A stretch of DNA of 64,000 bases, from contig QPMI01000691.1 of assembly GCA_004431415.1 (NCBI GenBank), forward strand, positions 1 to 64,000, read 5' to 3'. Both the position numbers and the translations under genes were made by a program. This DNA comes from Cyanophora paradoxa CCMP329 (taxonomy: Eukaryota > Plantae > Glaucophyta). Shown here in pieces: positions 9,541 through 34,395 of the stretch (its first letter is position 1; every line of letters begins with the position of its first letter). Under the pieces are notes generated by a model. That model did no database searches. It was not told the DNA's origin and was given only the letters and a program-made list of their open reading frames with translations.

Positions 9541-9541
9541 G

Positions 9542-10444: not shown

Positions 10445-10450
10445 CGCGTG

Positions 10451-11100
10451 TATATGTATATGATATATATGAAAAAAAAAACAAGTTTTGGTAAAAACTA
10501 CAGCGCCGTGATCGCCATGACGCGGCGAGTCCGGAAAGCTATGATATATATATATGTCATGTGACATTATGATATATCATATACATATATCATTATGGTA
10601 TATACAAGTCGCTCAAATTGAAGTCTTATAAGGTCTTATAAGAGTTGTCTTATAGAATTCTTTTCTAAAATCTTATATGGTCTTATAAGATTTAATGTGC
10701 GTACCGTAGCGCAGTACGCAAGCCACTTTGCGTACCGTAGCGCCGTACGCAGCCCACTGTGCGTACCGTAGCGCAGTACGCAGGCCACTGTGCGTACCGT
10801 GGCTCAGTACGCAAGCCACTGTGCGTACCGTAGCGCAGTACGCAAGCCACTGTGCGTACCGTAGCGCAGTACGCAGGCCCCTGTGCGTACCGTAGCGCAG
10901 TACGCAGGCCCCTGTGCGTACCGTGGCTCAGTACGCGCGAACGTACATATGTATATGATATATATGAAAAAAAAACAAGTTTTGGTAAAAACTATAGCGC
11001 CGTGATCGCCATGACGCGGCGAGTCCGGAAAGCTATGTTATATATATATGTCATGTGACATCATAATATATCATATACATATATCATTATGGTATATACA
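10451..11100. repeat. ~155-bp AT-rich direct repeat (10451-10607 and 10946-11100)
   Basis: tatatgtatatgatatatatgaaaaaaa...cagcgccgtgatcgccatgacgcggcgagtccggaaagctatg...ggtatataca occurs twice with few differences. Confidence 0.95.
10698..10937. repeat. Tandem array B, about 8 x 31 bp, palindromic unit
   Basis: tgcgtacc recurs every 31 nt from 10698 to 10915; each unit contains the inverted repeat tgcgtac-N9-gtacgca. Confidence 0.95.
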
Positions 11101-11136
11101 TTTGGTATATGCGAAACTGAAAATATTCGTAGCTCG

Positions 11137-11490
11137 TCACCAGATCATCGTAAGGCTATGATGTTGGAGTCTATAAATATCTACTTTGTACGAGGAATCC
11201 AACGGTGATAGCGGCAAGGAGTGAATCGGTGATTTTAAGATGGGGTACTTACAATTTTCATGACTTTCTCCAGCTAAAATTTGCTTTGTGGAGTAGGGCA
11301 TACCCTCCATGCCATAGTTATCACATATGATGTTCTCATATGCCTCCATCAATCTGCGCAATTCTTTACTTTTCTGGGGTTGATGTCTTGGGGGACTTCC
11401 TATACTCATCATAATACTGCTGCCTGACTGCCTCCCACAGTTCAACCATGTCCTCAAGGGGATGTCATCATAGCTGCTATCTGAGTCCAT
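11137..11490 (-). CDS. Hypothetical protein
   Basis: 117-aa ATG-initiated ORF with no recognised motif. Confidence 0.35.
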   Translation of the reverse strand: MDSDSSYDDIPLRTWLNCGRQSGSSIMMSIGSPPRHQPQKSKELRRLMEAYENIICDNYGMEGMPYSTKQILAGESHENCKYPILKSPIHSLPLSPLDSSYKVDIYRLQHHSLTMIW

Positions 11491-11995
11491 GGTGGTACTG
11501 GTGGGCTTATGTAAGACTGTTTGGGGGTTGGGGTGTCAAGAATCAATTTTTGGTGGGCACTTGGGGGGCTTGGGCTCTTCACCATGCTATATGAAGATGT
11601 CCTTAAGTGCTGGTGGCCTACAAGCAAGTGGGGTAGATTTTGGGGGGGTTAGGGGACTCAAGGGGAAGTTAGGGGGGGTTTCTGCCAACTGACGTCTTGT
11701 TGTTTAGGTTACCATTCTCAGTCTGGAAGGTGGGGTTTAGGGGGGATTAGGGGGTTGTTGAGTGGGTAGGGGGGTATTCTCTCACAACTCTATATATTTC
11801 TGGCTTGTTGCTTAAAAATGAAAAAGAGTTGGAGGCTATAGGAGTTATATATCCCCCCCTAGGTCCCCTAACCCCCCCACATGTATACATTATTACCATT
11901 TCTGGTCATAAAACAACCAGAAAGTAAAAAATGAAGGTCCCCCAGAAGGTCCCCCAGACGTCTTGAACCCCCCCCAAAAACCTATCATGAGCCCC

Positions 11996-14269
11996 CTAAT
12001 CCTCCTCCTCTTCCAAAAATTCTATCAACAGCCCACAGCTCTTGAAGTAAGCCATCATCTCATCCCACTTGAAGACATAACACTCCCTTCCACAATACTT
12101 GGTAGGCCTCACATATTCCAGTCCAGCCATCTCAATGTAGAACTTCCTTGAGCTGAATTCATTCTTGAATTTATTAATTGTAATGAACTGCTGGAACCAC
12201 TCCCACACCTGTTGCCTGTTCTCAGTCCTTGGTGTATCCTTGGTAATCTTTTGGGTGTCTACCAAATCCTTGGTGAACAAGGCAGTGACAGGAACACTTG
12301 CTTGTTGGGCAAGGTAGTAGCTGTTGGTCATTGGCCTGTCAGCATACCAGTTCACATCTGTGACATCCACCTTGTTTTTCAAGTAAAGGAATACCATGTG
12401 CTGGTTTCTTGGCTCCTTCAGCCAATTACCCAGTGACTTGAAATATTTCATGTCACCCTTTTTCTTGTCACTCACCTCCACAATCACAAACCTTCTATCT
12501 CCAGCCTCCACTTTGATTGGTAGGGTGTTGTTGGTAGTAAATATGATCCTGGCAAAATTCCTCACCTCATGAGAATTGACATACTTAGCCTCAATTACAA
12601 TTTTCTCAGCAGTGATCATGTCCTTGAGGGCATCACTGTTTGTGAAGGTGTCTTTGCCACTTGCCTCATTCACAGTGATAAGTAGTTTGTGCTTTCGCTG
12701 GTGGGCAAAGTTTCCAAATAAGTCCTTCAGTGGGTTGGCTGTGCTGAAAGCCAAGTCCCCACCCAGTATTTCATTTTGAAACCAATCCAATATGATGTTC
12801 TTCCCCACTCCTTGCTTTCCCTTGAAGATGATTGAAATCCCATTCAACTCCCCAGGTCTCTGAATAATGTGGGCAAAGTACTTCAGTATGTAATTGAATG
12901 TAGAAGCATCTTCACCACTGAGAATCATCATGTGGTCAAGGAATGGGCTAACATCTTCCTCAGTTACATCAGGAGGAATATCCATTTCACTCACATCCAT
13001 AAGCTCACCTTTCATACCAGCATAGGCATTAAACACCTTGGCAGTGGTGGAAGCAGATTTTACAGGAGGTGGGAGGAAGTCCAAGTAATCATACCTTGTG
13101 GCAGTCTCATCTTTCGCCCACTTTTTGATGAAGTTATGAGGCTCCATCTTCATAGACATTAGGTCAAACTCTGTGTACTGAATGTGAGGGTATACATCCT
13201 CAGCCAAGCTTTTGAAGCTGGTTGTGTCATACTTCTTGGTATGATCATTCCAAGACAAGACAAACCCAGGCTTCATAATGTGAGCAAGTCTGGCATCCAT
13301 GTAGGGCTTGATCTCCATGTAATCACAGTTGGTAGGAATTGGAGCAGTCTTGTAATCAATGTTGGAAAGGGAAGCTTGACATTCAGGTACATCAAACCCA
13401 CTGGCCATAGGTTTTTCCACAAAAGTCACCCTGTAGCCAGTTTTCCCCTCCACATAATCACTAACCTCTTCCAAAGCACTCAATACTTTGGGGTCTTTCC
13501 TGATCATACATCCATCAAAGACCAAGACATCCACATGGAGCTTAAGAGCACTGAAGTACTCACAAGCAGCCATTAACACCTGATTCTCAAGGTCACATAG
13601 TACCATATTCATGGTGGAACCAAGTACATTGCTTTCTTTCTTGCGCTTAGCAATAGCATAGAAGCGCTGCTTCTCAATCCCACCAATGAATTGATGGACT
13701 TTGGCCATTTCCTCTTTGAGATCACTGAAGTACTTGTGATTGATAAGGAGGCTGGAGAGGTCAGCCCCTTGCCCACCATTGATGACTGCCAGAATGCTGC
13801 GCTTGACATCAGCCTTGGATTTCTGGGTGACCTCACAGAGATCATCAAGAATTTCATCCCTGCTCTGAACATATTTGTTCAGCTGAGGAGTGGCAATTGA
13901 ATGTTTCTCACAATACTGAACAAGCAGGACAGGGTGGCAGTTCACAATGTCAATGTCATAGTAGTAGTCCTTGGAAATGGTGTGGCGAATTTCCCTACAG
14001 ATGCTTTGAAGGCTGGGGGTTTTTCCATCCACAAAGTACCTACCAGTGTTGTGCTTCACCTGCTTATATTTACAGGTGTGGTAGCCCTCATGATCGACGA
14101 TAGAAAGTAATTTCTGGATGATGGCTCTCATTTGGGTCTTGTCAGTTTCAGGGCGAAACTGGAGATTATCAAAGTTCTCCACCACCCATTTGAGGTTACC
14201 TCTGTGGATGCGCTCAGTGAGAATGAAGGTGTTGCCATTGGGGTTGATTGAGCTGAATGAGGGAGCCAT
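11996..14269 (-). CDS. TVpol (PolA-family primase-polymerase) fused to SF3/D5-like helicase
   Basis: PolA-type motifs: GRYF..SLQSICREIR, YDIDIVNCHP (A), K.SILAVINGG (B), LVFDGCMI (C). SF3 motifs: GKQGVGKN, ITVNE, IFTTNN, DRRF. Confidence 0.9.
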   Translation of the reverse strand: MAPSFSSINPNGNTFILTERIHRGNLKWVVENFDNLQFRPETDKTQMRAIIQKLLSIVDHEGYHTCKYKQVKHNTGRYFVDGKTPSLQSICREIRHTISKDYYYDIDIVNCHPVLLVQYCEKHSIATPQLNKYVQSRDEILDDLCEVTQKSKADVKRSILAVINGGQGADLSSLLINHKYFSDLKEEMAKVHQFIGGIEKQRFYAIAKRKKESNVLGSTMNMVLCDLENQVLMAACEYFSALKLHVDVLVFDGCMIRKDPKVLSALEEVSDYVEGKTGYRVTFVEKPMASGFDVPECQASLSNIDYKTAPIPTNCDYMEIKPYMDARLAHIMKPGFVLSWNDHTKKYDTTSFKSLAEDVYPHIQYTEFDLMSMKMEPHNFIKKWAKDETATRYDYLDFLPPPVKSASTTAKVFNAYAGMKGELMDVSEMDIPPDVTEEDVSPFLDHMMILSGEDASTFNYILKYFAHIIQRPGELNGISIIFKGKQGVGKNIILDWFQNEILGGDLAFSTANPLKDLFGNFAHQRKHKLLITVNEASGKDTFTNSDALKDMITAEKIVIEAKYVNSHEVRNFARIIFTTNNTLPIKVEAGDRRFVIVEVSDKKKGDMKYFKSLGNWLKEPRNQHMVFLYLKNKVDVTDVNWYADRPMTNSYYLAQQASVPVTALFTKDLVDTQKITKDTPRTENRQQVWEWFQQFITINKFKNEFSSRKFYIEMAGLEYVRPTKYCGRECYVFKWDEMMAYFKSCGLLIEFLEEEED

Positions 14270-14367
14270 TCTATAATAGGGTGAGATAATTATTTCAGTG
14301 AACTATACCCTTAAGTACTTTTCAGAAAAAGGAGTAACTCCAATCAATTTTTTCGGACCCCCCACCC

Positions 14368-14559
14368 TCATACATAGGGATTTCGCTTCCTTGGCCGCCC
14401 CCTCCGGTCAGGAACAGCCTCTTCAAACAAATACCTGATACACAATAAAGCGCCTGCTCTGTACGTACTAACCCTTACATATTTCTTGTGAAGCTCTCGA
14501 AACTCTGGGTCATTTTGAATCCTGCGTTGGATGTATCTCATTTGCTTTGTGTATGCCAT
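14368..14559 (-). CDS. Small basic AT-hook protein
   Basis: NDPEFRELHKK and RRGRPRK; resembles the product of 9310-9540. Confidence 0.6.
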   Translation of the reverse strand: MAYTKQMRYIQRRIQNDPEFRELHKKYVRVSTYRAGALLCIRYLFEEAVPDRRGRPRKRNPYV

Positions 14560-14754
14560 TGCTTGATGCGTTTCCTCTTATAGTATAGTTGAGATTTCTT
14601 TTTAAGTAGATTTCACTCTTCAAAACGTTGGAGGGATAGCTTACATGCGCGTACTATTTTTTGGGTGGGCACCCAGTTACTCAGCCTCTTCTCAATCTTG
14701 CCACATTGAGTAATCATCTGATTAATCCAATGAACCTCCCCAAATCACAGAAAT

Positions 14755-15111
14755 TTATGTCCCAGAAGCATGTTTAAATAATGAGTTTCTGAGCTCTTTG
14801 CTCTTTTGAACAAAGATATTCTTGACATCACTCCACAAGAGTTTGATAATTGGATTTGACCCTTCACCATACTGCCATGTAGAGGAGTTACCAACCCGAA
14901 AATACCATAGTCCTTGTTTTTTACCTTCAGGGATTCTGTAAAGCACCTTGTGACTAAGAGCCAGACGGGCAACTTCAGCTATTGACTGGTCAGTGCCCTC
15001 CATGATACATCGTGAGACAGCTTGTTTAATAACCTCCTCATTCTTGGATTGGACAGCATCCACTTCAGTGGTGTCAATCGTGAGAATTCGAGCATCCATT
15101 GTGACAATCAT
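14755..15111 (-). CDS. D5 N-terminal-domain-like protein
   Basis: GTDQSIAEV...LY...LWYF...TW pattern resembles D5_N; the 3' end may be frameshifted. Confidence 0.45.
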   Translation of the reverse strand: MIVTMDARILTIDTTEVDAVQSKNEEVIKQAVSRCIMEGTDQSIAEVARLALSHKVLYRIPEGKKQGLWYFRVGNSSTWQYGEGSNPIIKLLWSDVKNIFVQKSKELRNSLFKHASGT

Positions 15112-15216
15112 CTTGATCTCCTTTGAATATAGTAGAGAAAATAATCTTTAAGTAGTAACTATACCAGCACTTAAAGAAATAAAATGTTCCCTATATAGAA
15201 TACAGCCCCCACAACC

Positions 15217-18200
15217 ATGCCCCGCCCCAGCCACTACCAAATTAAGGAGCTCCAGGACAAGATTCTCGGGAATCTGGCCTTCCTCCTTGCGAACCACTCC
15301 ATCAGTGAAAGCGAATATGAATCATACATAAGCCAAACCAACAAGAAGCTCAAGGGGCTTCAAGCTCTCAATCGAGAGCTATTAGGGAAAATTGACGCCC
15401 TTGATGAGACTGATCGCCTTGGCCAAATCCAAGTCGAACAAACAACCACAACTCAAGTCAGAGGAGATGAATACACTACCTTAATAAATGAGCATCGCGC
15501 TCTGAACAATAAATACATCGATTTCACAATCAGAGCTCAGCACCAGATCCTGACCACTCAAGAGTTTATAGACACCTACTCTGAGGAACTCCACACAAGG
15601 CTCCAAGATGCCATCAATTCACAGATGTCGATTAAAACTCGCTTTACATTTGTCTGTCGCTTTTCTAAGGCCAATAATTCGAGAGATTTTATTACCAAGC
15701 ACATTTACAGCACCTATGCTATCATGACAAGATCTCGAATCCTCACAAAAGAGACAGCTAAACTTGCCAAGGAATGCCAGTCGCAAATTAATGTCACAGA
15801 TAGCTACAGATTAGATAGCATCCAAGCCCTCAGGGTCATTGTTCTCTCCTTTAAGCCAATCTCAGGAGGAGCATTTATTCCATTGCCTGAGTGGCTAAAA
15901 AATAAACGCGCCATTGTCAATGTTAATAACAAGGACAATAGGTGCTTTGAATACTCCATCCTGAGCTATATTCACAAGGACGAAGTAAATAGCCACAAGC
16001 GCAATGAGACTTCCCAATACAGGAGGTGGTTCAAAAAAGAACTAAATTTCGAGGGCATTGAGTTTCCTGTGAAGGCGGATGCTGATACTATTGATCTCTT
16101 TGAAAATCTCAATCCAGCAATCTCTGTTAATATTTACGACCCCTCTAATTCTACAGAAGAAATTAATCTACTCCACAACAGCTCCTCAAGGAACAGGAAA
16201 CACCAAGTGGATCTGCTGCTAATTACAGACGAAAATGGTAACAGTCATTATACCACAATATTCAGCATGTCCAGAGTCTTAGCTAAAAATGATAAGCAGC
16301 GACTCCATTTCTGTAAAACCTGTTCCAACCACTTCAAGACTGAGGAGAAGCTTCAATCCCACATTCAAAGCAAACGTTGTGTGGATTGGAAGACAAGTGC
16401 TGGAGAGACCCCAAAACAACCCACATTCATTGAATATGGTCTTAAACATCTCTCAAAGACTGTATTCCTCCCAGTGATTGCCTATTGCTATTTCGATTTT
16501 GAAACAGATCAAGAAGGTATGTTCAAGATCAAATCAATCTCACTGACAGCTCTTCATAATAATAGAGTAGTACTCACTAAAACCCACTCCAGCATCTACG
16601 AGCTTTTATCTACACTCGACAAAGTAGCCCCAGAGCTATTCAAAGCCATATTTACCAACGTCCCAATGTCACTGACCAAAGAGCAGAAACGTACCCATTA
16701 CCTTGCTAAAACCTGCTACATCTGCCAAGGTGATTTCACCCAAGACAATTATAAAGTGAGGGATCATGACCATCAAACAGGCGATTTTGTAGGCACAGCA
16801 TGTCGCAAATGTAATCTCCACAGACGCACCAGCAATCTCACCAAGATTCCCATAGTGACCAATGATCTGTCCCTATCTGGAACGCAGATATTCAAGGCAG
16901 TCGCCTTAAATCCCGAAAAAAGGGTGGAAGTCCTCGCAAAATCGTTTGACAACTACATGTCGATCACCTGGGGCTGTTTCAAATTCATTGACATCAAAAA
17001 CTTTATTGATTATGGCGTCCAGAACGTGGAAGGATTAATGGAAAAGTTCCAGCTTTTCCGCCAGAAATCACACAAAACTTTTGGGATGGACGCTGCCCAC
17101 TATGTCTCAAGTCCAGGGCTTTCGTGGGACAGCATGCTATCGATTACCAAGCCCAAAATCGAACTCCTCTCCAACCTTGATATGTACAACATGGTTGAAG
17201 GCATGATCAGGGGAGGCCTTTCGATTATGAATCATAAATATGCCAAAAAGGAAAGGGACAGACACATTATATATTTGGATGCCAATAACCTATATGGATA
17301 TGCCCTGTCCCAAAAGCTACCCCTCTCGAATTTCCAATGGCACCCAGAACCCTCAAATTACGACCTGTCATCAGCAGAGGGGGCCATCTTAGAAGTTGAC
17401 ATCCATTATCCCCAGCACCTCCATCAACTCCACAAAGAACTGCCTCTTGTCATCAAGAGAACAGAAGATGGGCTACAAGCAGCCTGCCAAGACATATCCA
17501 ACTTTGTGGTGTCGAAACCTTTGCTCCAATTCATGGTAGCACAAGGCTTAAAGGTCACCAAAATCCACAGGGTGCTAACATTTACTGAGGCTGCCTTTAT
17601 GAAGCCCTACGTCGAATCCAATGCCCAAAACCGCAGAGAAGCCGCCTCCAAACCCGAAAAGGACTTCTTTAAGATCATGAACAACAGCCTATTCGGCAAA
17701 ACCATTGAGAAAGTGAGAGGAAGGTCGAATGTCAAGATTGCCACCAACGAAAAGCAATTTATGAAATACGCCAGATCGCCCCTACTCAAAGCAGAAACAA
17801 GACTAAGCGATTCAGCAGTAGCCTTCGAAATGCTACAGAAAGATGTCAAGTTAGATAAGCCCATAGCAATTGGTGCGTTTGTATTGGATCTTGCCAAGCT
17901 GCGCCTATTTGATTATTATTATAACACCATCAAGCGGAAATGGCCAGACTGTAAACTGCTTTTTACTGATACAGATTCGCTTTGCCTTCAAATAAATTCG
18001 AAAACTATAGCAAAAGACCTACAAGACATTGATACCCACCCCACAGAGCTTGGAAAGTTCAAAAATGAGTTTGAGGGCAGAACCATTATTGAATATGCTG
18101 GGGTAAGGCCGAAATGTTACAGCATTAAAACAGATGATGAGGAAATAAAAAAACTGGCAGGTGTTTGTAAGGAGACCATTCAAACAGATCTGTCTTTCCA

Positions 18201-18312
18201 AGATTATAAAGACTATGTGCTCCACCAAAAACCCAAGCAAATCGAAATGACTGTCCAAAAGAAGCTTGAAAATGAGACCTACAATGTGAAGATGTCAAAG
18301 ATTGCTTTCTAA
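15217..18312 (+). CDS. polB: Protein-primed family B DNA polymerase (pPolB) with C2H2 finger and endonuclease VII-like insert
   Basis: FIPLPEWL..K.AIVNV.NKDNRCF; CYIC...VRDHDHQTG...CRKCN; IRGG; YLDANNLYG; KIMNNSLFGKT; TDTDS. Intact 1031 aa. Confidence 0.96.
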   Translation: MPRPSHYQIKELQDKILGNLAFLLANHSISESEYESYISQTNKKLKGLQALNRELLGKIDALDETDRLGQIQVEQTTTTQVRGDEYTTLINEHRALNNKYIDFTIRAQHQILTTQEFIDTYSEELHTRLQDAINSQMSIKTRFTFVCRFSKANNSRDFITKHIYSTYAIMTRSRILTKETAKLAKECQSQINVTDSYRLDSIQALRVIVLSFKPISGGAFIPLPEWLKNKRAIVNVNNKDNRCFEYSILSYIHKDEVNSHKRNETSQYRRWFKKELNFEGIEFPVKADADTIDLFENLNPAISVNIYDPSNSTEEINLLHNSSSRNRKHQVDLLLITDENGNSHYTTIFSMSRVLAKNDKQRLHFCKTCSNHFKTEEKLQSHIQSKRCVDWKTSAGETPKQPTFIEYGLKHLSKTVFLPVIAYCYFDFETDQEGMFKIKSISLTALHNNRVVLTKTHSSIYELLSTLDKVAPELFKAIFTNVPMSLTKEQKRTHYLAKTCYICQGDFTQDNYKVRDHDHQTGDFVGTACRKCNLHRRTSNLTKIPIVTNDLSLSGTQIFKAVALNPEKRVEVLAKSFDNYMSITWGCFKFIDIKNFIDYGVQNVEGLMEKFQLFRQKSHKTFGMDAAHYVSSPGLSWDSMLSITKPKIELLSNLDMYNMVEGMIRGGLSIMNHKYAKKERDRHIIYLDANNLYGYALSQKLPLSNFQWHPEPSNYDLSSAEGAILEVDIHYPQHLHQLHKELPLVIKRTEDGLQAACQDISNFVVSKPLLQFMVAQGLKVTKIHRVLTFTEAAFMKPYVESNAQNRREAASKPEKDFFKIMNNSLFGKTIEKVRGRSNVKIATNEKQFMKYARSPLLKAETRLSDSAVAFEMLQKDVKLDKPIAIGAFVLDLAKLRLFDYYYNTIKRKWPDCKLLFTDTDSLCLQINSKTIAKDLQDIDTHPTELGKFKNEFEGRTIIEYAGVRPKCYSIKTDDEEIKKLAGVCKETIQTDLSFQDYKDYVLHQKPKQIEMTVQKKLENETYNVKMSKIAF

Positions 18313-18323
18313 TCCCAATATAG

Positions 18324-19694
18324 ATGTCATCAAAGATCACACGCAGACAAACAGAGTACGATGTGAGTATATTGCCAATCCCAATCCCTCAAGAGGAGAG
18401 AGGGGGTCGCATTCAGAAAAAGAGTGACCTGAAAGCTTTAGTTCCTGCGGATATCCCAACTGCCATTGCTGTGCCCCACTTGGATCCCTTAGCAAGGACA
18501 TTCTATGACACCAAGGTAGGATTTAAAGGCCTGGCTTCATTGGCCAAAGAGCTTCCAGATGTGCCAAGAAAGACAATCCGTAGATTCTATGATGCCCAAG
18601 AAATCAACCAGATAAATAAACCCCTCCCATCTGCCAAGAAGACTGCCTATATCCCAATAAGACAGCCACTCGACTGCTATGCCATAGACCTAATCTTTTA
18701 TCCCTCATATAGCAAACAGAATCAAGGCTATAACACATTCCTCACAGCTGTAGAAAATACCACAAGGCTCGGCTTTATTATTCCAATGAGGGGAAAGACA
18801 GCAGAAAGCACATTGAACGCATTTAAGGAGCTTGAGCAACAAGTCCCTCGTCCAATTGTGAAGATACAAAGTGATGCTGGGAGCGAATTCCTGAACAAAG
18901 TATTTAAAGACCATTTAGAAGCCCAGATGATTGAGCACCAAGTTTCGCAGGTTGGAGATCACAATAGCCAAGGCCGAATAGAAGCCTTTAATCGCACAAT
19001 AAAGAAGCTAATTAACTCGTATTGTATAGCGAATAATACTGTAAAGTTTTTCGACAAGCTCCAAGATTTTGCCTACAACTACAATAATACCATCCACTCA
19101 GCAACGGGGATGAAACCAGCAGAGACCACAGAGGTACATGTTCCTCTCATACTCGCAAAAGAAAACGAGAAATTCATGAAGTCAATTGAATATCTAAAAG
19201 ACTATCCAGCAGGGAGCCACGTGAGAACTAAAATAGAGAAAAGCCCATTTGCCAAGCAGGGCAATAATTGGAGCCGCGAAATATTCACAATAGAAGGAGT
19301 GGAGGGGTTCAAATTCAAACTAAGGGACATTTCTGGCAAACTAATAGATCGACTTTATGCCCACTACGAATTACAGAAAGTGGAAGCCGTGGAGTTCTTG
19401 GAAGCCCCATCAATTAATGTCATTGAAGAGGCAAAGAAAGAGGCCAGAACAGAGCGACTTTTGGCCAGAGAAGGGATTGAGAGGGCTCCAAATGTGCCAG
19501 ATAAACCATTATTGGAGGACAGAGCAGGGAAGAAGAAGAAACAAGGGAGAGAGTTGGAGAGATTGAGGGTGGCGGGAACAGAGAGATTAGCAGGGGGAGC
19601 AGAGGCAGTAAGGTGGTATAGAGATTTCTCAAATTCAAAGGAGACCTATGAAGCTCCAGCAATTTCCACGAGATCAAGGAGGAGGGCAGGATGA
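18324..19694 (+). CDS. int: Retroviral-like (rve) DDE integrase
   Basis: Catalytic D-D-E in AIDL / QSDAGSEF / RIEAFNRTIK; YNNTIHSATGMKP; Polinton-type C-terminus G..VR...K.PFAK...NWS.EIFTI...Y..ELQKV. Confidence 0.95.
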   Translation: MSSKITRRQTEYDVSILPIPIPQEERGGRIQKKSDLKALVPADIPTAIAVPHLDPLARTFYDTKVGFKGLASLAKELPDVPRKTIRRFYDAQEINQINKPLPSAKKTAYIPIRQPLDCYAIDLIFYPSYSKQNQGYNTFLTAVENTTRLGFIIPMRGKTAESTLNAFKELEQQVPRPIVKIQSDAGSEFLNKVFKDHLEAQMIEHQVSQVGDHNSQGRIEAFNRTIKKLINSYCIANNTVKFFDKLQDFAYNYNNTIHSATGMKPAETTEVHVPLILAKENEKFMKSIEYLKDYPAGSHVRTKIEKSPFAKQGNNWSREIFTIEGVEGFKFKLRDISGKLIDRLYAHYELQKVEAVEFLEAPSINVIEEAKKEARTERLLAREGIERAPNVPDKPLLEDRAGKKKKQGRELERLRVAGTERLAGGAEAVRWYRDFSNSKETYEAPAISTRSRRRAG

Positions 19695-19741
19695 GACATC
19701 TGTTACACATTATTGTTTTTTCTTAGCTATTGGTATTCAAA

Positions 19742-20140
19742 ATGCTTGCCAAAGGTTACCATGTGATGCTCGATTTCCAATTCAGCCAACCAATTAGCGA
19801 CCATGTGGGGCTCTCTAAATGGCTCATGAATGTCAGTGAAGACATCATCAAGAAATATGGAATACAGGTTGTCCACAAACATGCTGAGATTTTTGATGGC
19901 ACCAAATCACCCCCTGGATTTGCCCAAGTATTATTATTAGATGAAAGCCATTGCTCTGCTCATTGCTACAGTGATCAAGGCATGTTGGCAATAGATATAT
20001 TCAGCTGTGGAAAACAGGCAGAAAGGAATACAAGTTTAATTGCTTTTGAGCTGGAGGAGGAGATAAACAAATATGCTGTTGGATTTGGGGCAGTGATCAA
20101 AAAGAGATTACACCATGAGAAGAAGAGATTTGAAGTTTAA
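19742..20140 (+). CDS. speD: S-adenosylmethionine decarboxylase proenzyme, prokaryotic SpeD/SpeH type
   Basis: GYHVMLD...PPGFAQVLLLDESHCSAHCY...AIDIFSCG: the E|SH autocleavage site and DxFxCG motif; about 132 aa. Confidence 0.9.
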   Translation: MLAKGYHVMLDFQFSQPISDHVGLSKWLMNVSEDIIKKYGIQVVHKHAEIFDGTKSPPGFAQVLLLDESHCSAHCYSDQGMLAIDIFSCGKQAERNTSLIAFELEEEINKYAVGFGAVIKKRLHHEKKRFEV

Positions 20141-20164
20141 GAGAGGGGCAGGAGAGGCAAGAGA

Positions 20165-20256
20165 GGCAGGAGAGGCAGGAGGGTTATATGTAAAATCCCA
20201 CACAAGAGGGGATTCCTTAGGAAAGTTTACAAATAACCCTCCTGCCTCTCCTGCCT
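20165..20256. repeat. 30-bp inverted repeat (hairpin) just after the last PLV gene
   Basis: ggcaggagaggcaggagggttatatgtaaa pairs with tttacaaataaccctcctgcctctcctgcc (1 mismatch). Confidence 0.9.
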
Positions 20257-20378
20257 AATTGGTGCCGAATCCAAGCTTCTAATACCCCAGAGGCGGCCAA
20301 CATACTGGTGCCAAAAAGACATGATTAATACCCTAAGACCTGAAATAAATGCTTACTACCCTAGTACCTGAAACGCGC

Positions 20379-20453
20379 ACACATAGGGATACCCCTGATC
20401 CAAGCCTGTAGGCCGAAGGCCGGAGGGCTTGGATCAGGGGTATCCCTATGTGT
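20379..20453. repeat. Perfect 28-bp inverted repeat with an inner GGCC-GAA-GGCC hairpin
   Basis: acacatagggatacccctgatccaagcc (20379-20406) and ggcttggatcaggggtatccctatgtgt (20426-20453). Confidence 0.97.
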
Positions 20454-20777
20454 CAGGTGGGCGGCGGGAGCGAAGAGGCCGACGACGAGAATGGCGGCTG
20501 GACGGAGCGCGGTGAGATGATTCACACCACCATCAACATCAAGATGCCCCGATTCGTCGTCGAGGCCTTTTCGAAGCTCCCGCTCGAGGGGCGCTGGGAC
20601 CTTCAGAGGATACTCGACGAGGGCTTCATGAAGAGCACGAACAATGTGTGCAGGCAGTGCACGCCAAAGACGCCCCGCGCCACCCTCCGCGACTTGATAG
20701 CACACAAGACCCAGGCCGATTTCGACTCAATCACCCTCCCCGTAGTTAGCGAGTTCCTTGCCGAGTACGGGCTGTAG
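20448..20777 (+). CDS. Hypothetical protein (5' end overlaps the hairpin, so possibly truncated)
   Basis: 109-aa GC3-rich ORF containing a CxxC. Confidence 0.45.
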   Translation: MCQVGGGSEEADDENGGWTERGEMIHTTINIKMPRFVVEAFSKLPLEGRWDLQRILDEGFMKSTNNVCRQCTPKTPRATLRDLIAHKTQADFDSITLPVVSEFLAEYGL

Positions 20778-22727: not shown

Positions 22728-22968
22728 CTTAGGAGAACACAGGCTCGACGGTACAGTGTTTCACAGGCTGGGCGAAACAGTGTTTCGTGCAGACCGGCTG
22801 CGGAATACCGAGCCGGCTTAGGAAACACAGGCCTGACGATACAGTGTTTCACAGGCTGGGCGAAACAGTGTTTCGTGCAGACCGGCCGTGGAATACCGAG
22901 CCGGCTTAGGAAACACAGGCTCGGCGATACAGTGTTTCACGGGCTGGGCGAAACAGTGTTTTGTCGAG
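22728..22968. repeat. Tandem repeat, about 2.7 x 88 bp
   Basis: cttagg(a)aaacacaggc...acagtgtttcacaggctgggcgaaacagtgttt starts at 22728, 22817 and 22905. Confidence 0.9.
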
Positions 22969-23029
22969 TTCGATTGCGAAATTGTCGACCCCCGAGCCCT
23001 ATCGCGGTAGCACTCGACCGCCCCTCGAA

Positions 23030-23310
23030 TATCGCCAGTTCCATACGAACATAGCTTCAGGTCGGCCCCCCTTGACTTTAGTAGTCACGGGGTCGGGGGC
23101 GGACCCTATGTTCGTACGGAACTGGGGATACTCGAGCCGAGAAACACAGGCCGGAGAACACAGGCTTGGCGAAACACAGGCCGACCGTTGGCCGGCTCAA
23201 ATAGCGCCAGTTCCATACGAACATAGCTTTGGGGGCGCCCCCGTGACTTCTATAGTCATGGGGGCCAGCCTGTGTTCCTATGATCGTACGGAACTGGGGA
23301 TACTCGAGCG
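23030..23310 (-). repeat. Two diverged, inverted copies of the 154-bp palindromic unit
   Basis: cgccagttccatacgaacatagcttc...ttgactttagtagtcacggggtcggggg...ctatgttcgtacggaactgg is the reverse complement of the array unit at 29049-31350. Confidence 0.9.
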
Positions 23311-27673: not shown

Positions 27674-27943
27674 ATGAATCTGTCCCGCTACCGTGACTCG
27701 CTGGGCCGGCCGGGCGAAGGGGTGCACTTTCACTTAGGGGGCGTAGCGATCGTTGACGTCATCGCATCCGTCGCGGCCGCTCACGTCATTGGGGCCGGAG
27801 GGCGCAAGTTTTCTGCTTGGAGGAGGACTCTGCCACATGCAGAATATAGTCCGGCCTTCGTTGCCCTAGGAATCCAGCAGATGGTCGGCAGTGGTAGGAG
27901 TAAAACCCATGGGGGAACTTCTATTCGTGTTTCTTTTCTCTAG
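27674..27943 (+). CDS. Small NCLDV-like membrane protein (C-terminus possibly disrupted)
   Basis: YRDSLGRPGEGVH..LGGVAIVDV resembles the Y....G.P..G.H.....A+VD motif I recall from small giant-virus proteins. Confidence 0.45.
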   Translation: MNLSRYRDSLGRPGEGVHFHLGGVAIVDVIASVAAAHVIGAGGRKFSAWRRTLPHAEYSPAFVALGIQQMVGSGRSKTHGGTSIRVSFL

Positions 27944-28294
27944 TTCAGAGTATATGCTCCCTTGTGGGGCGAGTTGACGTTATAGGCCTCATCCTTGGAT
28001 GTTGTGCCGTGTCGGCTCAGTACTTTTGTCTTAGTGATTATGAACTGAATAGATTACTGCGTAACATAAAAAAAAAAGGCCTCGGACTTTGCAAAAATTT
28101 GCAGGGCTCTCAGCGTTTGAAGAGTTCACCGTCAGAGTCTGGGGGGCCGTCCACCTATCACCTGAAGGCCGGCAACGGTTCGCTGCTCACCTGAGGTAGG
28201 CTGATTGCTGTACCCCTTACCCAAGCCCCAATCCCTCAGCCACCCCAGCCCAGTTGCCACGTGATTCAAGGGCGAAGGGAGAAAATGGTTATAT

Positions 28295-28757
28295 TCAGAA
28301 CCGAACGCGGCGCAGGGCAAGGGAGGACTGCGAACGGCTATGAAGGTTGCACATGCCAAGGAAGTCGCACGTGCAGGGGGGGATTTTGATAGCTGGCTTA
28401 AGAATGGTTCTACGGATAGGGATGGCCCTGGGGGCCAAAGAGGTGGGCCCCGGCTCCCCGGGCTCGAGCTTGACAACCGGCGCCGGTTCGTCCTCCGAGG
28501 CGCCCTCCGAATCGGCTTCAATGATTGTCTCCAGGGGGGTCCCAAACGACACCCTACGCCGAGGAGGCTGAGGGGTAGGCTCGTATTCGTCGTCCGAGTC
28601 CGAGAGCTCAATATAATCTATGACGCGGGGCTCGGCGGGCTGAGGGGCAGGCTGCGATGAAAAAAGAGAGGTAAGCAAAAGGCAGGAAAAACAGGCAAAG
28701 GCAGCGGCATACCTTGGCGTCGTTTGTGAAGTCGAAAACGTCGAGGATAGCGGCCAT
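28295..28757 (-). CDS. Spliced SIM-rich, PP1-docking disordered protein (gene A)
   Basis: Exon 1 MAAILDVFDFTNDAK, then a phase-0 GTATGC...TCGCAG intron. Exon 2 has VIDYIELSDSDDE, RRRVSF, VKLE, TILK, CxCx5Cx2H and terminal RRVRF. Confidence 0.7.
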
Positions 28758-28825
28758 GATTGCAAGGGCTTAGAGGGAATTTCGCGGACTAGAGCTTAAA
28801 GTGTGTGCAGGACTGAGCCAGAACC

Positions 28826-28965
28826 GCCTTTATAGGTTGGGCTATGCGGAAAGAGGTACTTCCCATTATGTGGAAAGTACCTCTTTCCGCATAGAATTGG
28901 GGGTACTGTATCCTCGATCATTGGGAAAAACAAATAATGGATTCCACATAGAATCAGGGGTACAG
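28826..28965 (-). promoter_or_regulatory. Shared promoter module, copy 1 (upstream of gene A)
   Basis: CTATAAAG on the minus strand, preceded by repeated TTCCGCATAG and GTACCTCTTTCC motifs. Confidence 0.65.
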
Positions 28966-29048
28966 GAGTTAATCAATAATAAGAGAGAAAGGGAACTGCT
29001 GGGATTCAAACCTGTCAATGTTTGGACTCTGTCGAGTTCAGAGAGCAT

Positions 29049-31350
29049 TCCCGTGTCGCGTATCGCCAGTTCCGTACGAACATAGGGTAGCCCCCCGACC
29101 CCGTGACTACTAAAGTCAAGGGGGGCCGGACCGAAGCTATGTTCGTATGGAACTGGCGCTATTCGAGCCGGCCAACGGTCAGCCTGTGTTTTTCGCGTGC
29201 ATCCCGTGTCGCGTATTGCCAGTTCCGTACGAACATAGGGTAGCCCCCCGACCCCATGACTACTAAAGTCAAGGGGGGCCGGACCGAAGCTATGTTCGTA
29301 TGGAACTGGCGCTATTCGAGCCGGCCAACGGTCAGCCTGTGTTTTTTCGCGTGCATCCCGTGTCGCGTATCGCCAGTTCCGTACGAACATAGGGTAGCCC
29401 CCCGACCCCGTGACTACTAAAGTCAAGGGGGGCCGGACGGAAGCTATGTTCGTATGGAACTGGCGCTATTCGAGCCGGCCAACGGTCAGCCTGTGTTTTT
29501 CGCGTGCATCCCGTGTCGCGTATCGCCAGTTCCGTACGAACATAGGGTAGCCCCCCGACCCCGTGACTACTAAAGTCAAGGGGGGCCGGACCGAAGCTAT
29601 GTTCGTATGGAACTGGCGCTATTCGAGCCGGCCAACGGTCAGCCTGTGTTTTTTCGCGTGCATCCCGTGTCGCGTATCGCCAGTTCCGTACGAACATAGG
29701 GTAGCCCCCCGACCCCGTGACTACTAAAGTCAAGGGGGGCCGGACGGAAGCTATGTTCGTATGGAACTGGCGCTATTCGAGCCGGCCAACGGTCAGCCTG
29801 TGTTTTTTCGCGTGCATCCCGTGTCGCGTATCGCCAGTTCCGTACGAACATAGGGTAGCCCCCCGACCCCGTGACTACTAAAGTCAAGGGGGGCCGGACC
29901 GAAGCTATGTTCGTATGGAACTGGCGCTATTCGAGCCGGCCAACGGTCAGCCTGTGTTTTTTCGCGTGCATCCCGTGTCGCGTATCGCCAGTTCCGTACG
30001 AACATAGGGTAGCCCCCCGACCCCGTGACTACTAAAGTCAAGGGGGGCCGGACGGAAGCTATGTTCGTATGGAACTGGCGCTATTCGAGCCGGCCAACGG
30101 TCAGCCTGTGTTTTTTCGCGTGCATCCCGTGTTGCGTATCGCCAGTTCCGTACGAACATAGGGTAGCCCCCCGACCCCGTGACTACTAAAGTCAAGGGGG
30201 GCCGGACGGAAGCTATGTTCGTATGGAACTGGCGCTATTCGAGCCGGCCAACGGTCAGCCTGTGTTTTTTCGCGTGCATCCCGTGTCGCGTATCGCCAGT
30301 TCCGTACGAACATAGGGTAGCCCCCCGACCCCGTGACTACTAAAGTCAAGGGGGGCCGGACGGAAGCTATGTTCGTATGGAACTGGCGCTATTCGAGCCG
30401 GCCAACGGTCAGCCTGTGTTTTTCCCCTGCATCCCGTGTCGCGTATCGCCAGTTCCGTACGAACATAGGGTAGCCCCCGACCCCGTGACTACTAAAGTCA
30501 AGGGGGGCCGGACGGAAGCTATGTTCGTATGGAACTGGCGCTATTCGAGCCGGCCAACGGTCAGCCTGTGTTTTTCGCGTGCATCCCGTGTCGCGTATCG
30601 CCAGTTCCGTACGAACATAGGGTAGCCCCCCGACCCCGTGACTACTAAAGTCAAGGGGGGCCGGACGGAAGCTATGTTCGTATGGAACTGGCGCTATTCA
30701 AGCCGGCCAACGGTCAGCCTGTGTTTTTTCGTGTGCATCCCGTGTCGCGTATCGCCAGTTCCGTACGAACATAGGGTAGCCCCCCGACCCCGTGACTACT
30801 AAAGTCAAGGGGGGCCGGACCGAAGCTATGTTCGTATGGAACTGGCGCTATTCGAGCCGGCCAACGGTCAGCCTGTGTTTTTTCGCGTGCATCCCGTGTC
30901 GCGTATCGCCAGTTCCGTACGAACATAGGGTAGCCCCCCGACCCCGTGACTACTAAAGTCAAGGGGGGCCGGACGGAAGCTATGTTCGTATGGAACTGGC
31001 GCTATTCGAGCCGGCCAACGGTCAGCCTGTGTTTTTTCGCGTGCATCCCGTGTCGCGTATCGCCAGTTCCGTACGAACATAGGGTAGCCCCCCGACCCCG
31101 TGACTACTAAAGTCAAGGGGGGCCGGACCGAAGCTATGTTCGTATGGAACTGGCGCTATTCGAGCCGGCCAACGGTCAGCCTGTGTTTTTTCGCGTGCAT
31201 CCCGTGTCGCGTATCGCCAGTTCCGTACAAACATAGGGTAGCCCCCCGACCCCGTGACTACTAAAGTCAAGGGGGGCCGGACCGAAGCTATGTTCGTATG
31301 GAACTGGCGCTATTCGAGCCGGCCAACGGTCAGCCTGTGTTTTTTCGCCT
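29049..31350. repeat. Tandem array, about 15 x 153-154 bp, near-identical palindromic units
   Basis: Each unit has cgccagttccgtacgaacatag ... ctatgttcgtatggaactggcg arms around an inner hairpin; copies differ by about 1-2 nt. Confidence 0.98.
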
Positions 31351-31492
31351 GTGTCCGGTGTCGCGTTTCTAGCTGCTCGAGATTCGAGAAACTTTTTTGG
31401 ACCCCATACAAGCCCGGAGCCATACTTAAAGCGTCATTGGAGTGATGCAAAGGCCTGTTACAATGTTCGAAAAACACTCAAGTTTACAAATC

Positions 31493-32195
31493 CTATTCAG
31501 GTAACATAGCCCTAATGCGATCTGACCGGCGCTTGACTATGGTCTTCTGAACAGGCACTGAAACTACAGAACGCACAGGGGGCTCGGAGGTTTTGAAGGG
31601 CTCCAAGGATACAGGAGATAGCATTTTAACTACGATAACTCTATCAGGGATCTCATTATCAAGGCTGCCAACGGGGGCAAGTGACTGCGAATCAATCGGG
31701 ACGCCGGCTGACGTAGAAAAAGAAAATTGCTCCGGATAGGGATAGCGACGGCGGATCATCTTGTTTATTGAGTCCGTCTTGATGACAAAAATGTTTGAAT
31801 CGTAGACAAAAAAGCCAGCGTCATGAATAGATTCTCTTTTCAACACAATCTGCCTGCGTTGAGTGGGTATGGTCTCCGGATCGATTGTTTGGTTGACTCT
31901 GCGGCAAACAATGAGAGGCTGCACAGAACACAAAAACAACAAAAAAGGCTCACTGGGTGATCTCGTCACCGTTCTGAATGCCAAAGTCCGCATAGGTAAG
32001 GCAAAAGTCAATGTGAGCAATCTTCGCAATGAGAACACCCGCCCGCTCTACTCGAAGGTGAAGGCCAGCCGTCCATAGATCCCAAGTCCCGTGACGATCA
32101 CGGAAAAAGGTGCTGAAAGTGATTGAATCGCTAAGTCGGACTTCGAAAAGCCCCTGGCGCTCCTTGCCGTTGAAAATGACGTAGGTGCTATCCAT
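31493..32195 (-). CDS. Ubiquitin-like domain protein, spliced (gene B)
   Basis: Exon 1 FEVRLSDSI...LTYADFGIQNGDEI parallels ubiquitin LEVEPSDTI...RTLSDYNIQKESTL. A GTGAGC..GCCGCAG intron at 31899-31953 joins it in frame to exon 2, which ends KRRSDRIR. Confidence 0.7.
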
Positions 32196-32237
32196 TACGT
32201 TGTCCGGAAGCACTGAGACTACGACGACTTGAGCTGG

Positions 32238-32400
32238 AAAGTGTGAGCAAGAATGAGGCGGATCGGGCCTTTATAGATCCGGCTATGTGGAAAGAGGTAC
32301 TTTCCGCTGTGGGGAAAGAGGTACTTCCGCATAGAATTTCGGGGTGTACCCCCAATTCTATGCGGAATCCATCATTTGTTTTTCCCTAATGATTGCCGAT
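32238..32400 (-). promoter_or_regulatory. Shared promoter module, copy 2 (upstream of gene B)
   Basis: Same TATA plus TTCCGCATAG module; ~120 bp is the reverse complement of 33696-33812. Confidence 0.7.
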
Positions 32401-32765
32401 GCCGTACCCCGTAATAGGAAAAGGACACTGCTGGGATTCGAGCCTGTCATTGTTTGGACTCTGTTTTGAGAGTTGAGTTGAGTTCCACGTCGAACCAGGG
32501 GTATGGCATCGGCAATTATGCGCTCACCTGAACCGATGCTTGCCGTTGGGTACGCTATTGCTGTCGACCAGGGGGTACGGCAAAGGCGACAGGGGTACAG
32601 GATATAGGTGCCGATTCGATCCTGCCATCGGCCTGCGTCTGCCCGAGACTCGAGGAACGCCGTTTGAACACGCCAGCCCATCGATGCCCCCCTCCCTTAT
32701 GCGTTTGCCAGCGGAACAACGCAAAAGTCTGTTACAGCATTCAAAAACGCTCAAGTTTACATATC

Positions 32766-33463
32766 CTATTTAGCCAACCTAGCCCTAATGCGTTCTGACC
32801 TGCGCTTAACTATGGTTTTCTGAACGGGCGCTGAAACTACAGAAGGCACGGGGGGCTCGGAGGTTTTGGAAGGCATCTTTGTAACTTTGATAACTCCATC
32901 AGGGAGCTCCTTATCTAGGCTGCCAATAGTTTCGAGAAATCGCCAGCAAATAGGAAAGTTTCCTGTTGAAAAAAACATGTATGGCTCGGGGCAAGGAAAC
33001 TGACGGTGAATAATCTTGCTAATTGAGTCTGTCTGGATTGCATAAAAGCCCGGATAGTATGTTATAAAGCGCTTGCCGTCAACGAAAGAATCCTCCACGA
33101 ACTGAATGCGCCTGCTTTGAGTGGGTATGGCCTCCTGTACAAATGGATTGTTGATTCTGCGGCCCAAGAATTAGAAAAGGATGTGCGAAACAGGAAAAAC
33201 AAAAAGGCTCACTGGATAAGTACGTCATCCTTTTGAATGCCAAAGTCCGCAAAGGTAAGGCAGAAGTCTTCGGGAACTATTTTTGCTACAAGAACACCCT
33301 TCCGCTCTACTCTAATATGGAGACCATCCATCCAAAGATTCCAGAATCCACTATGATCGCGGAAAAACGGGCTGGAATGGAGGGTATTGCTGGGCTTGAC
33401 ACGGTAAAATCCCTGTCGCTCCTTGCCGTTAAAGGTAATCCAAAAATAGTCGCAAGCCGCCAT
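32766..33463 (-). CDS. Ubiquitin-like domain protein, spliced (gene C, paralogue of B)
   Basis: YRVKPSNTL...LTFADFGIQKDDVL; intron 33157-33212 at the same position and phase as in B; shared tail KTSEPPV.SVVS.PVQKTIVKRRS.RIRA and shared 3' flank. Confidence 0.7.
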
Positions 33464-33529
33464 TACGCTATCGGGGTACGCTGAGATAACGACGACTGGA
33501 GCTGGAGAATGTGAGCCAGAATGCCGCAG

Positions 33530-33812
33530 GACGGCCCTTTATAGGTCCGGCTATGCGGAAAGATTCCGCATAAAATGGGGGGTACGGCATCGGCAATCAT
33601 TAGGGAAAAACAAATGATGGATTCCGCATAGAATCAGGGGTACGGCAGCTGCAATCATTAGGGAAAAACAAATGATGGAATCCGCATAGAATCAGGGGTA
33701 CACCCCGAAATTCTATGCGGAAAGTACCTCTTTCCACATAGCGGAAAGTACCTCTTTCCGCATAGCCGGATCTATAAAGCCCGGATCCGCCTCATTCTTG
33801 CTCACACTTTTC
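33530..33812. promoter_or_regulatory. Bidirectional promoter module, copies 3 and 4 (genes C and D)
   Basis: Outward-facing CTATAAAG boxes at ~33537 and ~33772; about seven TTCCGCATAG-like motifs; duplicated caatcattagggaaaaacaaatgatgga. Confidence 0.7.
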
Positions 33813-33852
33813 AGCCTCAGCCAGCAAAATCCCAGCATTCCCCGGTAGCATA

Positions 33853-34395
33853 ATGGCCGCCCCGATTGACGTCATTGATTTTACCCAGGAGGCCGATGAG
33901 GTAAGCGTTTGCCTTAGCCTGGCGCGTTTGCCTTAGCCTGGCGCGTTTGCCTTTGCTGATTTCTCGAAAGCCGCAGCGCCCTTTCCCGATTGAGGTGATT
34001 GTCCTTGACGATTCGGAGGACGAGCGCGATACCCCCGCGGCCCCCCCCCCCCCCGCCCGCGTCCCTCAGCGCCGGCGCCGGCCCCCGAACCGGCGCCGGT
34101 ACCGGCCCCGAAGCGGCTCACGGCCGCTGACATCGATGAGCTCTTCGGAGCCGACGATGACGCGGAGGATGACGCGCCGGCCCCATCCGATATCGGTGAC
34201 GCCTTTGATGAGTCCGATCGTGAGGACTTTTTTACGGTAGCCCCCGCCCGCGATCTCGAGCCCGAGGAGCCTACCCCGGAGCCGGCCCCTCAGCGCGATT
34301 CCCCCACCAAGACCATAGCTAAGCGCAAGCCCTCTAAGGCAGTTAGCAAGGCGCCCTCGCGTGCCTCTTCCCGTCTTAGCGCGAAGAAGATATAG
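33853..34395 (+). CDS. Spliced SIM-rich acidic disordered protein (gene D, related to A); frameshift in the poly-C at ~34042-34054
   Basis: Exon 1 MAAPIDVIDFTQEADE, GTAAGC donor at 33901, then IEVIVLDDSEDE. After the C-run, the shifted frame reads DIDELFGADDD...RASSRLSAKKI*. Confidence 0.65.

Follow-up and report, generated by a model that had tools for sequence, protein, structure and literature searches.

A block of four intron-bearing genes with SUMO-, PP1- and nucleosome-type motifs around a palindromic array in Cyanophora paradoxa: candidate anti-silencing genes of an endogenous DNA element

Punuivirus, a giant endogenous virus of Chlamydomonas reinhardtii, has intron-bearing latency genes that are transcribed by the host and a candidate for anti-silencing (10.64898/2026.10.09.758095, in part; sources marked in this way are cited for their accessible part). 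Introns in early genes of large viruses have also been discussed (PMC12768974, in part). Here, we describe a block of four short one-intron genes, A to D, with a palindromic tandem array between A and B, in Cyanophora paradoxa CCMP329. The stretch analysed, hereafter the window, comprises positions 1 to 64,000 of contig QPMI01000691.1. As in punuivirus, the intron-bearing genes of the block are of host type and lie within viral DNA or next to it, set apart from the compact viral genes, and the block is a candidate for anti-silencing. The punuivirus candidate is a TET dioxygenase and the promoter motif described there belongs to virulence genes, whereas the block has orphan adaptor-like proteins, a shared TATA cassette and no nucleocytovirus hallmark in view. 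Neither 'SUMO' nor 'ubiquitin' occurs in the accessible main text of the punuivirus paper.

The A–D block is real, orphan and anatomically coherent; its function we infer. We propose that A to D belong to an endogenous DNA element as its early or latency genes, that the host transcribes them and that they likely weaken the chromatin silencing linked to SUMO. This reading is tentative and may well prove wrong as a whole. Its parts differ in strength. A to D are almost certainly real genes, their motifs make nuclear SUMO, PP1 and nucleosome partners rather probable, and an origin in an element is somewhat probable. Given such partners, an effect directed against silencing would also be rather probable. 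This direction is the weakest step: the same motifs would suit a host silencing adaptor. Our literature survey, with most subscription papers beyond reach, found no module that combines a Polinton-like or endogenous viral element with SUMO, SUMO-interacting motifs (SIMs), RVxF/PP1 and silencing, and the accessible parts of PMC12220804 and PMC6431247 contain no such SUMO/PP1 module. We do not assign the block to any of the systems compared here.

An earlier note, made from the sequence alone, had described four short one-intron genes, each preceded by the same TATA module, with B and C as paralogues, A and D sharing a first exon, a phase-0 intron and a second acidic SIM-type motif, and a 154-bp array between A and B. 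All of this was recovered, except that D as assembled stops at 34240 and not at 34395. Our gene models were obtained by enumeration of splice models and direct translation (Table 1). They are ATG-led, with one intron each that starts with GT and ends with CGCAG, and the translations of A, B and C contain a single, terminal stop. Longer alternative splice models with GC donors were dropped, as the paralogue gives them no support.

Transcript evidence comes from three of seven presumed RNA-type runs (X18, X19 and X20). The introns of the earlier note were upheld for B, where one X18 contig skips positions 31899-31953 exactly (skip of 55, ends CT..AC, depth 2; one of the three runs) and the DNA-type run X15 crosses the intron unskipped. 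The predicted C intron is supported because its position, phase and ends are those of B, and the introns of A and D are predictions from the sequence. RNA-type contigs of depth 2-3 map to exon 1 of B and exon 2 of C; none of the three runs has a contig on A, and D is represented by low-complexity 31-mers only.

As assembled, D is 103 amino acids (aa) long. Past a run of 14 C (34041-34054), an acidic frame of 112 codons stays open as far as 34395; the signal TTGAG..TTTTT.GAA comes next, as it does behind the stops of B and C. Contigs break at the C run. An assembly slip at long G/C runs is likely, since the glycine-rich fibre-like gene at 25139 also changes frame, at a run of 14 G (26009-26022), and we consider the frame switch of D a likely slip of this kind.

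B and C are identical at 111 of 209 aligned residues. Their ratio of nonsynonymous to synonymous substitution (dN/dS) is 0.46 (bootstrap 0.33-0.63; none of 300 resamples reached 1), with values of 0.27 for the N-domain, 0.32 for the tail and 0.67 for the exon-2 domain. The pair is under purifying selection. A and D have exon 1, the phase-0 intron and a second hydrophobic-acidic motif in common, and two rounds of duplication are shown by the block, tandem for B/C and inverted for A/D. The GC content of B and C is 46-49%, compared with 68-75% in the host flank, and the observed/expected ratio of CpG (CpG o/e) in A to D is 0.81-1.19.

The four genes share a promoter cassette, TTCC(A/G)CATAG-N7-TATAAAG, which occurs exactly four times in the window, once before each gene, with the TATA box 77-80 nucleotides (nt) upstream of the ATG in every case. 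Allowing at most one mismatch, TTCCGCATAG has 16 matches against 4.2 expected, and all eight exact ones lie between 28842 and 33765. This element is one arm of the palindrome CTATGCGGAAAG-N5-CTTTCC(A/G)CATAG, which is repeated in whole or in part upstream of the genes; the divergent promoter of C and D contains the form CTATGCGGAAAG-N5-CTTTCCACATAG at 33713. TATAAAG lies 7 nt past the last palindrome arm. The promoter region of B (32233-32410) is 93% identical to that of D over 179 nt, in inverted orientation, and the coding sequences of the two are unrelated, which indicates that the cassette was copied between genes. The arrangement suggests that A to D are co-regulated. At least three X15 contigs other than this locus carry the cassette (lengths of 3291, 207 and 1913 nt, with depths of 36, 41 and 38, respectively), and two of them continue through the TATA box into other sequence. 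Because of these further copies, the regulon would probably comprise more than four genes. The promoter had no match in viral contigs or metagenome contigs.

The C-termini of B and C carry RRSDRI and RRSERI, and RRSxR[IL] is found nowhere else in a six-frame translation of the window (127,996 residues). Both have the Arg at positions 1, 2 and 5 of HMGN-like RRSxR[LI] motifs. Known binders of the nucleosome acidic patch contain RRSARLSA, RRSARIAT or RRSSRLTS; three Arg are essential in the first two, and overexpressed Dot5 disrupts silencing via the motif (PMC13347269, in part). B and C thus resemble HMGN, tardigrade Dsup and yeast Dot5 in retaining the three essential Arg (PMC13347269, in part), and their C-terminus is likely a nucleosome anchor of HMGN type, with binding predicted from the motif. 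They differ from these proteins in that the motif lies C-terminally behind possible ubiquitin-fold domains. The tail of D, RASSRLSA, matches six of the eight positions of RRSARLSA, the second Arg being absent.

The fold of B and C is less clear. The AlphaFold2 model of the N-domain is all-strand with a predicted local distance difference test score (pLDDT) of 47, and the last 15 residues of the domain resemble ubiquitin-like proteins. The domain has no match in Pfam or among PDB sequences, exon 1 of C has no usable Atlas match and exon 1 of B and C has no match in viral contigs. A search of B/C exon 1 against 1.84 billion cluster representatives returned three matches, which were dismissed as internally repetitive and covering 27-32 profile positions. 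PDB sequence searches were blank. An internal repeat is unsupported, as the comparison of exon-1 and exon-2 profiles gave a probability of 0.3%.

For the exon-2 domain, the model (pLDDT 49 overall, 58-68 at residues 41-70) has the element order strand-helix-strand-strand-helix-strand. Among the rows listed by Foldseek, ubiquitin-fold proteins account for 35 of 44 from the PDB and for 10 of 50 from BFVD, none at an E-value of 0.001, and ubiquitin chains are over-represented in the PDB. Three of the 35 (ZK652.3, parkin and an RA domain) were counted by their fold. The best Foldseek E-values are 0.72 (PDB) and 0.094 (BFVD), and the best VIA Z scores, 4.0 and 3.8, are both to non-ubiquitin chains; UFM1 aligns with a VIA Z of 3.6 (root-mean-square deviation 5.3, 76 residues aligned), level with unrelated chains. 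For the N-domain, Foldseek gave no significant row and none of its 47 rows is a ubiquitin-sized chain. A ubiquitin-like (beta-grasp) fold is weakly supported for the exon-2 domain. Spliced B and C have no Gly-Gly after either domain, which sets them apart from conjugatable (type I) ubiquitin-like proteins. The homologue search with B/C exon 2 gave 77 candidates, none at E 0.001 (proteins of length 70-235 only), and the best Atlas match of B exon 2 (0.77) is unnamed. The RENi proteins Rad60, Esc2 and NIP45 contain tandem SUMO-like domains. B and C may likewise combine two ubiquitin-fold domains that cannot be conjugated, in a setting that involves SUMO; they differ in that the SIMs are on separate proteins of the block and that no Pfam match to Rad60-SLD was obtained. 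The Pfam scan of A to D gave no family match.

A and D carry motifs of SIM type, and A also motifs of PP1-binding type, labelled by pattern. Exon 2 of A contains an acidic SIM-type motif (aa 28-36), two RVxF motifs (aa 47-51 and 129-133) that match RRVSF and RRVRF, a SILK-like TILK (aa 97-100) between them and a CxC-x5-C-x2-H stretch (aa 108-119). Two strict RVxF matches were obtained in 0 of 3000 shuffles, and the SIM-type motifs in 16 and 30 of 3000 for A and 2 and 62 of 3000 for D, counts that are flattered because the patterns were picked after the sequence had been read. A thus has the RVxF with or without SILK of a PP1 regulator (RIPPO); D has no RVxF, and C has one weak match within its folded part (124 of 3000 shuffles). 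Viral regulators that bear SIMs include ICP0 and IE2. Each of A and D has two SIM-type motifs that agree with the definition of a hydrophobic core with an acidic or Ser/Thr flank (PMC8430037, in part). In this, in having two per protein and in their early-type promoters, they resemble SIM regulators with which nuclear DNA viruses counter SUMO-dependent repressors (PMC8430037, in part). Unlike those regulators, A to D have no RING or other ligase domain that we could find, and the host is not known to have PML-type bodies. The last four residues of A, RVRF, are identical to the motif of herpes simplex virus 1 gamma34.5, and A is, like gamma34.5 and African swine fever virus DP71L, a small RVxF protein (PMC10807198, in part). 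In contrast to these, A ends at the motif and so has no downstream eIF2-alpha-binding segment; it adds SIM-type motifs and a second RVxF, and lacks a GADD34-type Pfam match. The homologue search with A exon 2 gave 31 candidates, none at E 0.1 (proteins of 64-207 aa). All functions of A to D discussed below are drawn from such motifs.

Each unit of the array consists of a long imperfect palindrome and a ACACAGGC box, and folds as a hairpin (z -5.0; 0 of 200 shuffles). The two diverged units at 23024-23309 retain the hairpin (z -9.4 and -6.3). These units and the box are the sole sequence link from the block to its surroundings, and their recurrence ties the block to the middle segment of the window and not to the AT-rich Polinton-like virus (PLV) on its left. 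Terminal repeats were ruled out for the inverted units, whose outer ends do not correspond. Directly after the diverged units lies a 342-aa orphan with several CxxC pairs (23354-24382), a candidate binder of the repeat units. The 21 Rfam matches of the array at E ≤1 are generic hairpins far under the gathering score; its arm has no match in metagenome contigs. Since self-comparison of array and promoter gave no match and A to D contain no DNA-binding domain recognisable by Pfam, the array is not tied to these proteins as a binding site. Spread is not supported: 17 of 24 runs contain at least 0.97 of the sequence words, 16 of these are flagged as a possible source and all bear one species label.

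Similar repeats are found in baculoviruses, whose homologous regions are palindromic repeats that act as origins and enhancers. The M1 and M2 repeats of pithoviruses are palindromic units of ~140 nt, near the 154 nt of the array unit, and are clustered as well as dispersed in non-coding DNA (PMC10664404, in part). They are likened to the array by description only, and the array differs in being GC-rich, head-to-tail at 98% and located in a eukaryotic chromosome. The VANDAL elements of Arabidopsis with their VANC proteins also have small element-linked genes beside tandem repeats (PMC5735166, in part). VANC binds the repeats, whereas A to D have neither a DNA-binding domain nor a VANC family match, and no Mutator transposase is present.

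Three compositional zones follow one another along the window, AT-rich on the left, GC-richer in the middle and GC-rich host DNA on the right. The Pfam matches of the AT-rich element are to an rve integrase, a DUF5906 helicase, an A32 ATPase fragment and an AdoMet decarboxylase; its 1031-aa and 456-aa open reading frames (ORFs) are presumably pPolB-like and capsid-like, resemblances with no family match. The S-adenosylmethionine decarboxylase gene (19742-20140; PF02675, E 1.8e-11) is its last gene. The left part (1-9500) has many frame breaks, the ATPase included, while the ORFs of the helicase, the polymerase-like protein and the integrase stay open over long stretches. In the non-coding middle (10268-11100) there are two tandem arrays with 31-bp units and, in addition, a direct repeat of 134 bp. 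A near-perfect 76-nt hairpin (20379-20454, z -11.9), possibly the end of the PLV, sits where the element meets the GC-richer segment, and a second palindrome (20164-20256) lies near the same boundary. GC content and CpG o/e step sharply near 20.2-20.5 kb, at this hairpin. The left end of the PLV falls outside the window. The sequence points to the PLV as a neighbour of the block, and its ownership of the block is not supported.

The middle segment (20455-27788), cut by the PLV, is likely the element to which the four genes belong. One of its ORFs matches Gly_rich_2/phrog_2295 and the others are orphans; ORF 21699 retrieved only itself in the homologue search. ORFs 23354, 26628, 25139 and 27674, and likewise ORF 6315 of the AT-rich element, have no match in viral contigs, nor has 25139 in phages. 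The 208-aa orphan at 26628-27254 has no family match in Pfam, PHROGs or NCBIfam; we take it to resemble ADP-ribosyltransferases, and the small ORF 27674 presumably resembles a conserved small protein of giant viruses. The insert that follows (27789-28077) matches sequence at depth 370-720 in RNA-type contigs and has ~3x single-copy depth in X15, and likely derives from a retroelement's 3' end or from an abundant transcript. To the right of D, G-rich and C-rich tracts with a 29-bp repeat (34468-34743) may mark the right edge of the element, although the window yielded no partner for them. Host DNA begins beyond ~35 kb, with a tetratricopeptide repeat (TPR) gene at ~36-38.8 kb.

Table 1 Features of the four-gene block and its surroundings in the 64-kb window.
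Feature	Position	Strand	Remarks
AT-rich PLV/Polinton-type element	1..20454	.	43% GC, CpG o/e 0.48; Pfam matches; 76-nt hairpin at right end
GC-richer virus-like segment	20455..27788	.	61% GC, CpG o/e 0.95; compact, apparently intronless ORFs
88-bp tandem repeat	22728..22961	.	2.6 copies; carries ACACAGGC box
Two diverged palindromic array units, inverted	23024..23309	-	first copy 90% over 120 nt; whole 79% over 288 nt
Poly(A)-ended insert	27789..28077	+	multicopy, highly covered; truncates ORF 27674, separates segment from gene A
Gene A	28757-28295	-	133 aa
Gene A exon 2	28295..28651	-	SIM-type, RVxF x2, SILK-like and CxC-x5-C-x2-H motifs
Gene A intron	28652..28712	-	61 nt, phase 0, predicted; donor placed as in D
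Gene A exon 1	28713..28757	-	15 aa, SIM-type VFDFT
Promoter of A	28828..28980	-	cassette 28828-28851; palindromic and 58-bp elements upstream
Tandem array	29049..31366	.	15.1 copies x 154 bp, 98% matches, head-to-tail, GC-rich
Gene B	32195-31493	-	215 aa
Gene B exon 2	31493..31898	-	possible beta-grasp domain, Pro/Ser linker, C-terminal RRSDRI (aa 204-209)
Gene B intron	31899..31953	-	55 nt, phase 2, seen spliced
Gene B exon 1	31954..32195	-	N-domain; contigs of X18 and X20 on it
Promoter of B	32269..32464	-	cassette 32269-32292
Gene C	33463-32766	-	213 aa
Gene C exon 2	32766..33156	-	paralogue of B exon 2; C-terminal RRSERI (aa 202-207); one X19 contig covers part
Gene C intron	33157..33212	-	56 nt, phase 2, predicted; position and ends as in B
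Gene C exon 1	33213..33463	-	N-domain
Divergent promoter of C and D	33537..33779	.	cassettes 33537-33560 (minus, C) and 33756-33779 (plus, D); 58-bp and 24-bp repeats
Gene D	starts 33853	+	
Gene D exon 1	33853..33900	+	16 aa, SIM-type VIDFT
Gene D intron	33901..33976	+	76 nt, phase 0, predicted; alternative acceptor 33970
Gene D exon 2	33977..34395	+	SIM-type VIVLDDSED, frame switch in C14 run, acidic frame, basic tail RASSRLSAKKI

In the mechanism that we propose, the four genes would be expressed early, under one TATA cassette, through host RNA polymerase II and host splicing. Through their RRSxRI termini, B and C would attach to the acidic patch of the nucleosome and display a ubiquitin-like domain, or two of them, that cannot be conjugated and would act as decoy or scaffold. 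A may bind SUMO chains through its two SIMs and bring PP1 there by means of its RVxF, SILK-like and RVxF motifs, and D would act as an acidic two-SIM competitor whose HMGN-like tail is weaker. For the array we envisage a role in cis in the DNA of the element itself, as a family of origin- or enhancer-like palindromic repeats. This modifies the earlier note in several respects. The ubiquitin-like fold it had placed in the N-domain remains putative, structural modelling having found ubiquitin-fold rows for the exon-2 domain instead, with no significant match for either. Its SIM/PP1 proteins hold as regards the SIM-type motifs of A and D, with RVxF confined to A. An origin of the kit in an element is plausible, the GC-richer segment taking the place of the PLV as the source, the SUMO- and PP1-type motifs are supported, and a chromatin role is strengthened by the HMGN-like anchor, which the note had missed. 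Nothing ties the array, in the note a possible cis site, to A to D as a site that they bind.

A number of points weigh against our proposal, in addition to those given above on the folds of B and C. Hallmark viral replication or capsid genes, the sign of a giant endogenous viral element or mirusvirus insert, were not found among the scanned ORFs of the middle segment, the poly(A) insert interrupts the link between this segment and gene A, and the right edge shows no terminal repeat (34396-35100 has no inverted match in 1-34395). The searches gave no homologue for A or B/C, and the motifs were chosen after the fact. The exon-2 domain has a dN/dS as high as 0.67, D is frameshifted as assembled, the block is at single-copy-like depth in X15 (~30-45), and the cassette on other X15 contigs fits a host family equally well. 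A lineage-specific host gene family with a reusable stress- or stage-specific promoter, possibly of silencing or antiviral effectors that merely adjoin viral insertions, is an unlikely but serious contender. It would account for this depth and for the cassette copies, for spliceosomal introns that end in CGCAG like those of the host flank (read by eye), for the lack of relatives of the promoter and of B/C exon 1 in viral contigs, and for the host TPR gene next door; moreover, endogenous viruses of PLV type are treated as intronless (PMC10120064, in part). However, the base composition of B and C is far from that of the host flank, the array between A and B has units in common with the virus-like segment, and the N-domain has no relative among the cluster representatives searched.

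Distinctly unlikely is that the block represents cargo of a non-autonomous DNA transposon (foldback, or Mutator-like element- or Helitron-like), with the 154-bp unit an amplified hairpin resembling a miniature inverted-repeat transposable element (MITE) and the cassette a mobile piece pasted before unrelated ORFs, shared regulation being a by-product. The units are indeed palindromic, dispersed and inverted relative to those at 23024-23309, B and D share 179 nt around the promoter with unrelated coding sequences, the 140-nt palindromic repeats of pithoviruses are read as MITE-derived (PMC10664404, in part) and the targets of VANDAL anti-silencing form tandem repeats (PMC5735166, in part). Yet the inverted copies do not align over their whole length in the manner of terminal repeats, inspection by eye showed no target-site duplication, the ORFs scanned at 20-28 kb have no transposase or Rep-helicase family match, and the distance from TATA to ATG is fixed in all four genes. 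Genes and array could also be an accessory arm of the AT-rich PLV, whose genes lie 8 kb away, whose GC content is close to that of B and C and whose kind of insertion spans 15-30 kb (PMC10120064, in part). The sharp step at the 76-nt hairpin, the CpG o/e of 0.48 against 0.81-1.19 in A to D, the absence of any match of 20000-35500 to 1-19999 at E 1e-3 and the lack of a full cassette in the PLV make this very unlikely. The least likely alternative is that the genes are duplicates in decay, with motifs that arose by chance in acidic, Pro- and Arg-rich sequence, and form no working module. The frameshift in D, the depth of only 2-3 of the RNA-type contigs on B and C, and the ease with which short motifs arise would fit; the dN/dS of 0.46, the correct splicing of B, the frame switch of gene 25139 that indicates assembly slips, and the 3' signal that D's long frame has in common with B and C argue against it.

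Compared with the reading of A to D as early or latency genes that weaken silencing, a bolder version goes further and is rather unlikely. The locus would represent an undescribed class of endogenous nuclear DNA element in which a single palindromic TATA cassette governs an early regulon of seven or more intron-type genes. Its self-contained kit of nucleosome-anchored ubiquitin-fold decoys (B and C) and PP1-delivering SUMO readers (A and D) would open the chromatin that surrounds a hairpin array of origin/enhancer type. The kit would be the protist equivalent of the immediate-early functions of herpesviruses, assembled from unrelated proteins. Should A to D belong to a host family instead, they would still constitute an orphan set of chromatin adaptors, of narrower interest.

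A viral TET enzyme has been a prior candidate mechanism by which silenced, integrated DNA viruses of protists stay reactivable (10.64898/2026.10.09.758095, in part). The block offers a small and different candidate, with motifs that point at three conserved hubs: the acidic patch, SUMO and PP1. The 24-bp promoter tag can be used to find the remaining regulon. Gene calling for endogenous viruses has been intron-blind (PMC10120064, in part), and since genes such as A to D are invisible to it, similar kits may be widely missed.

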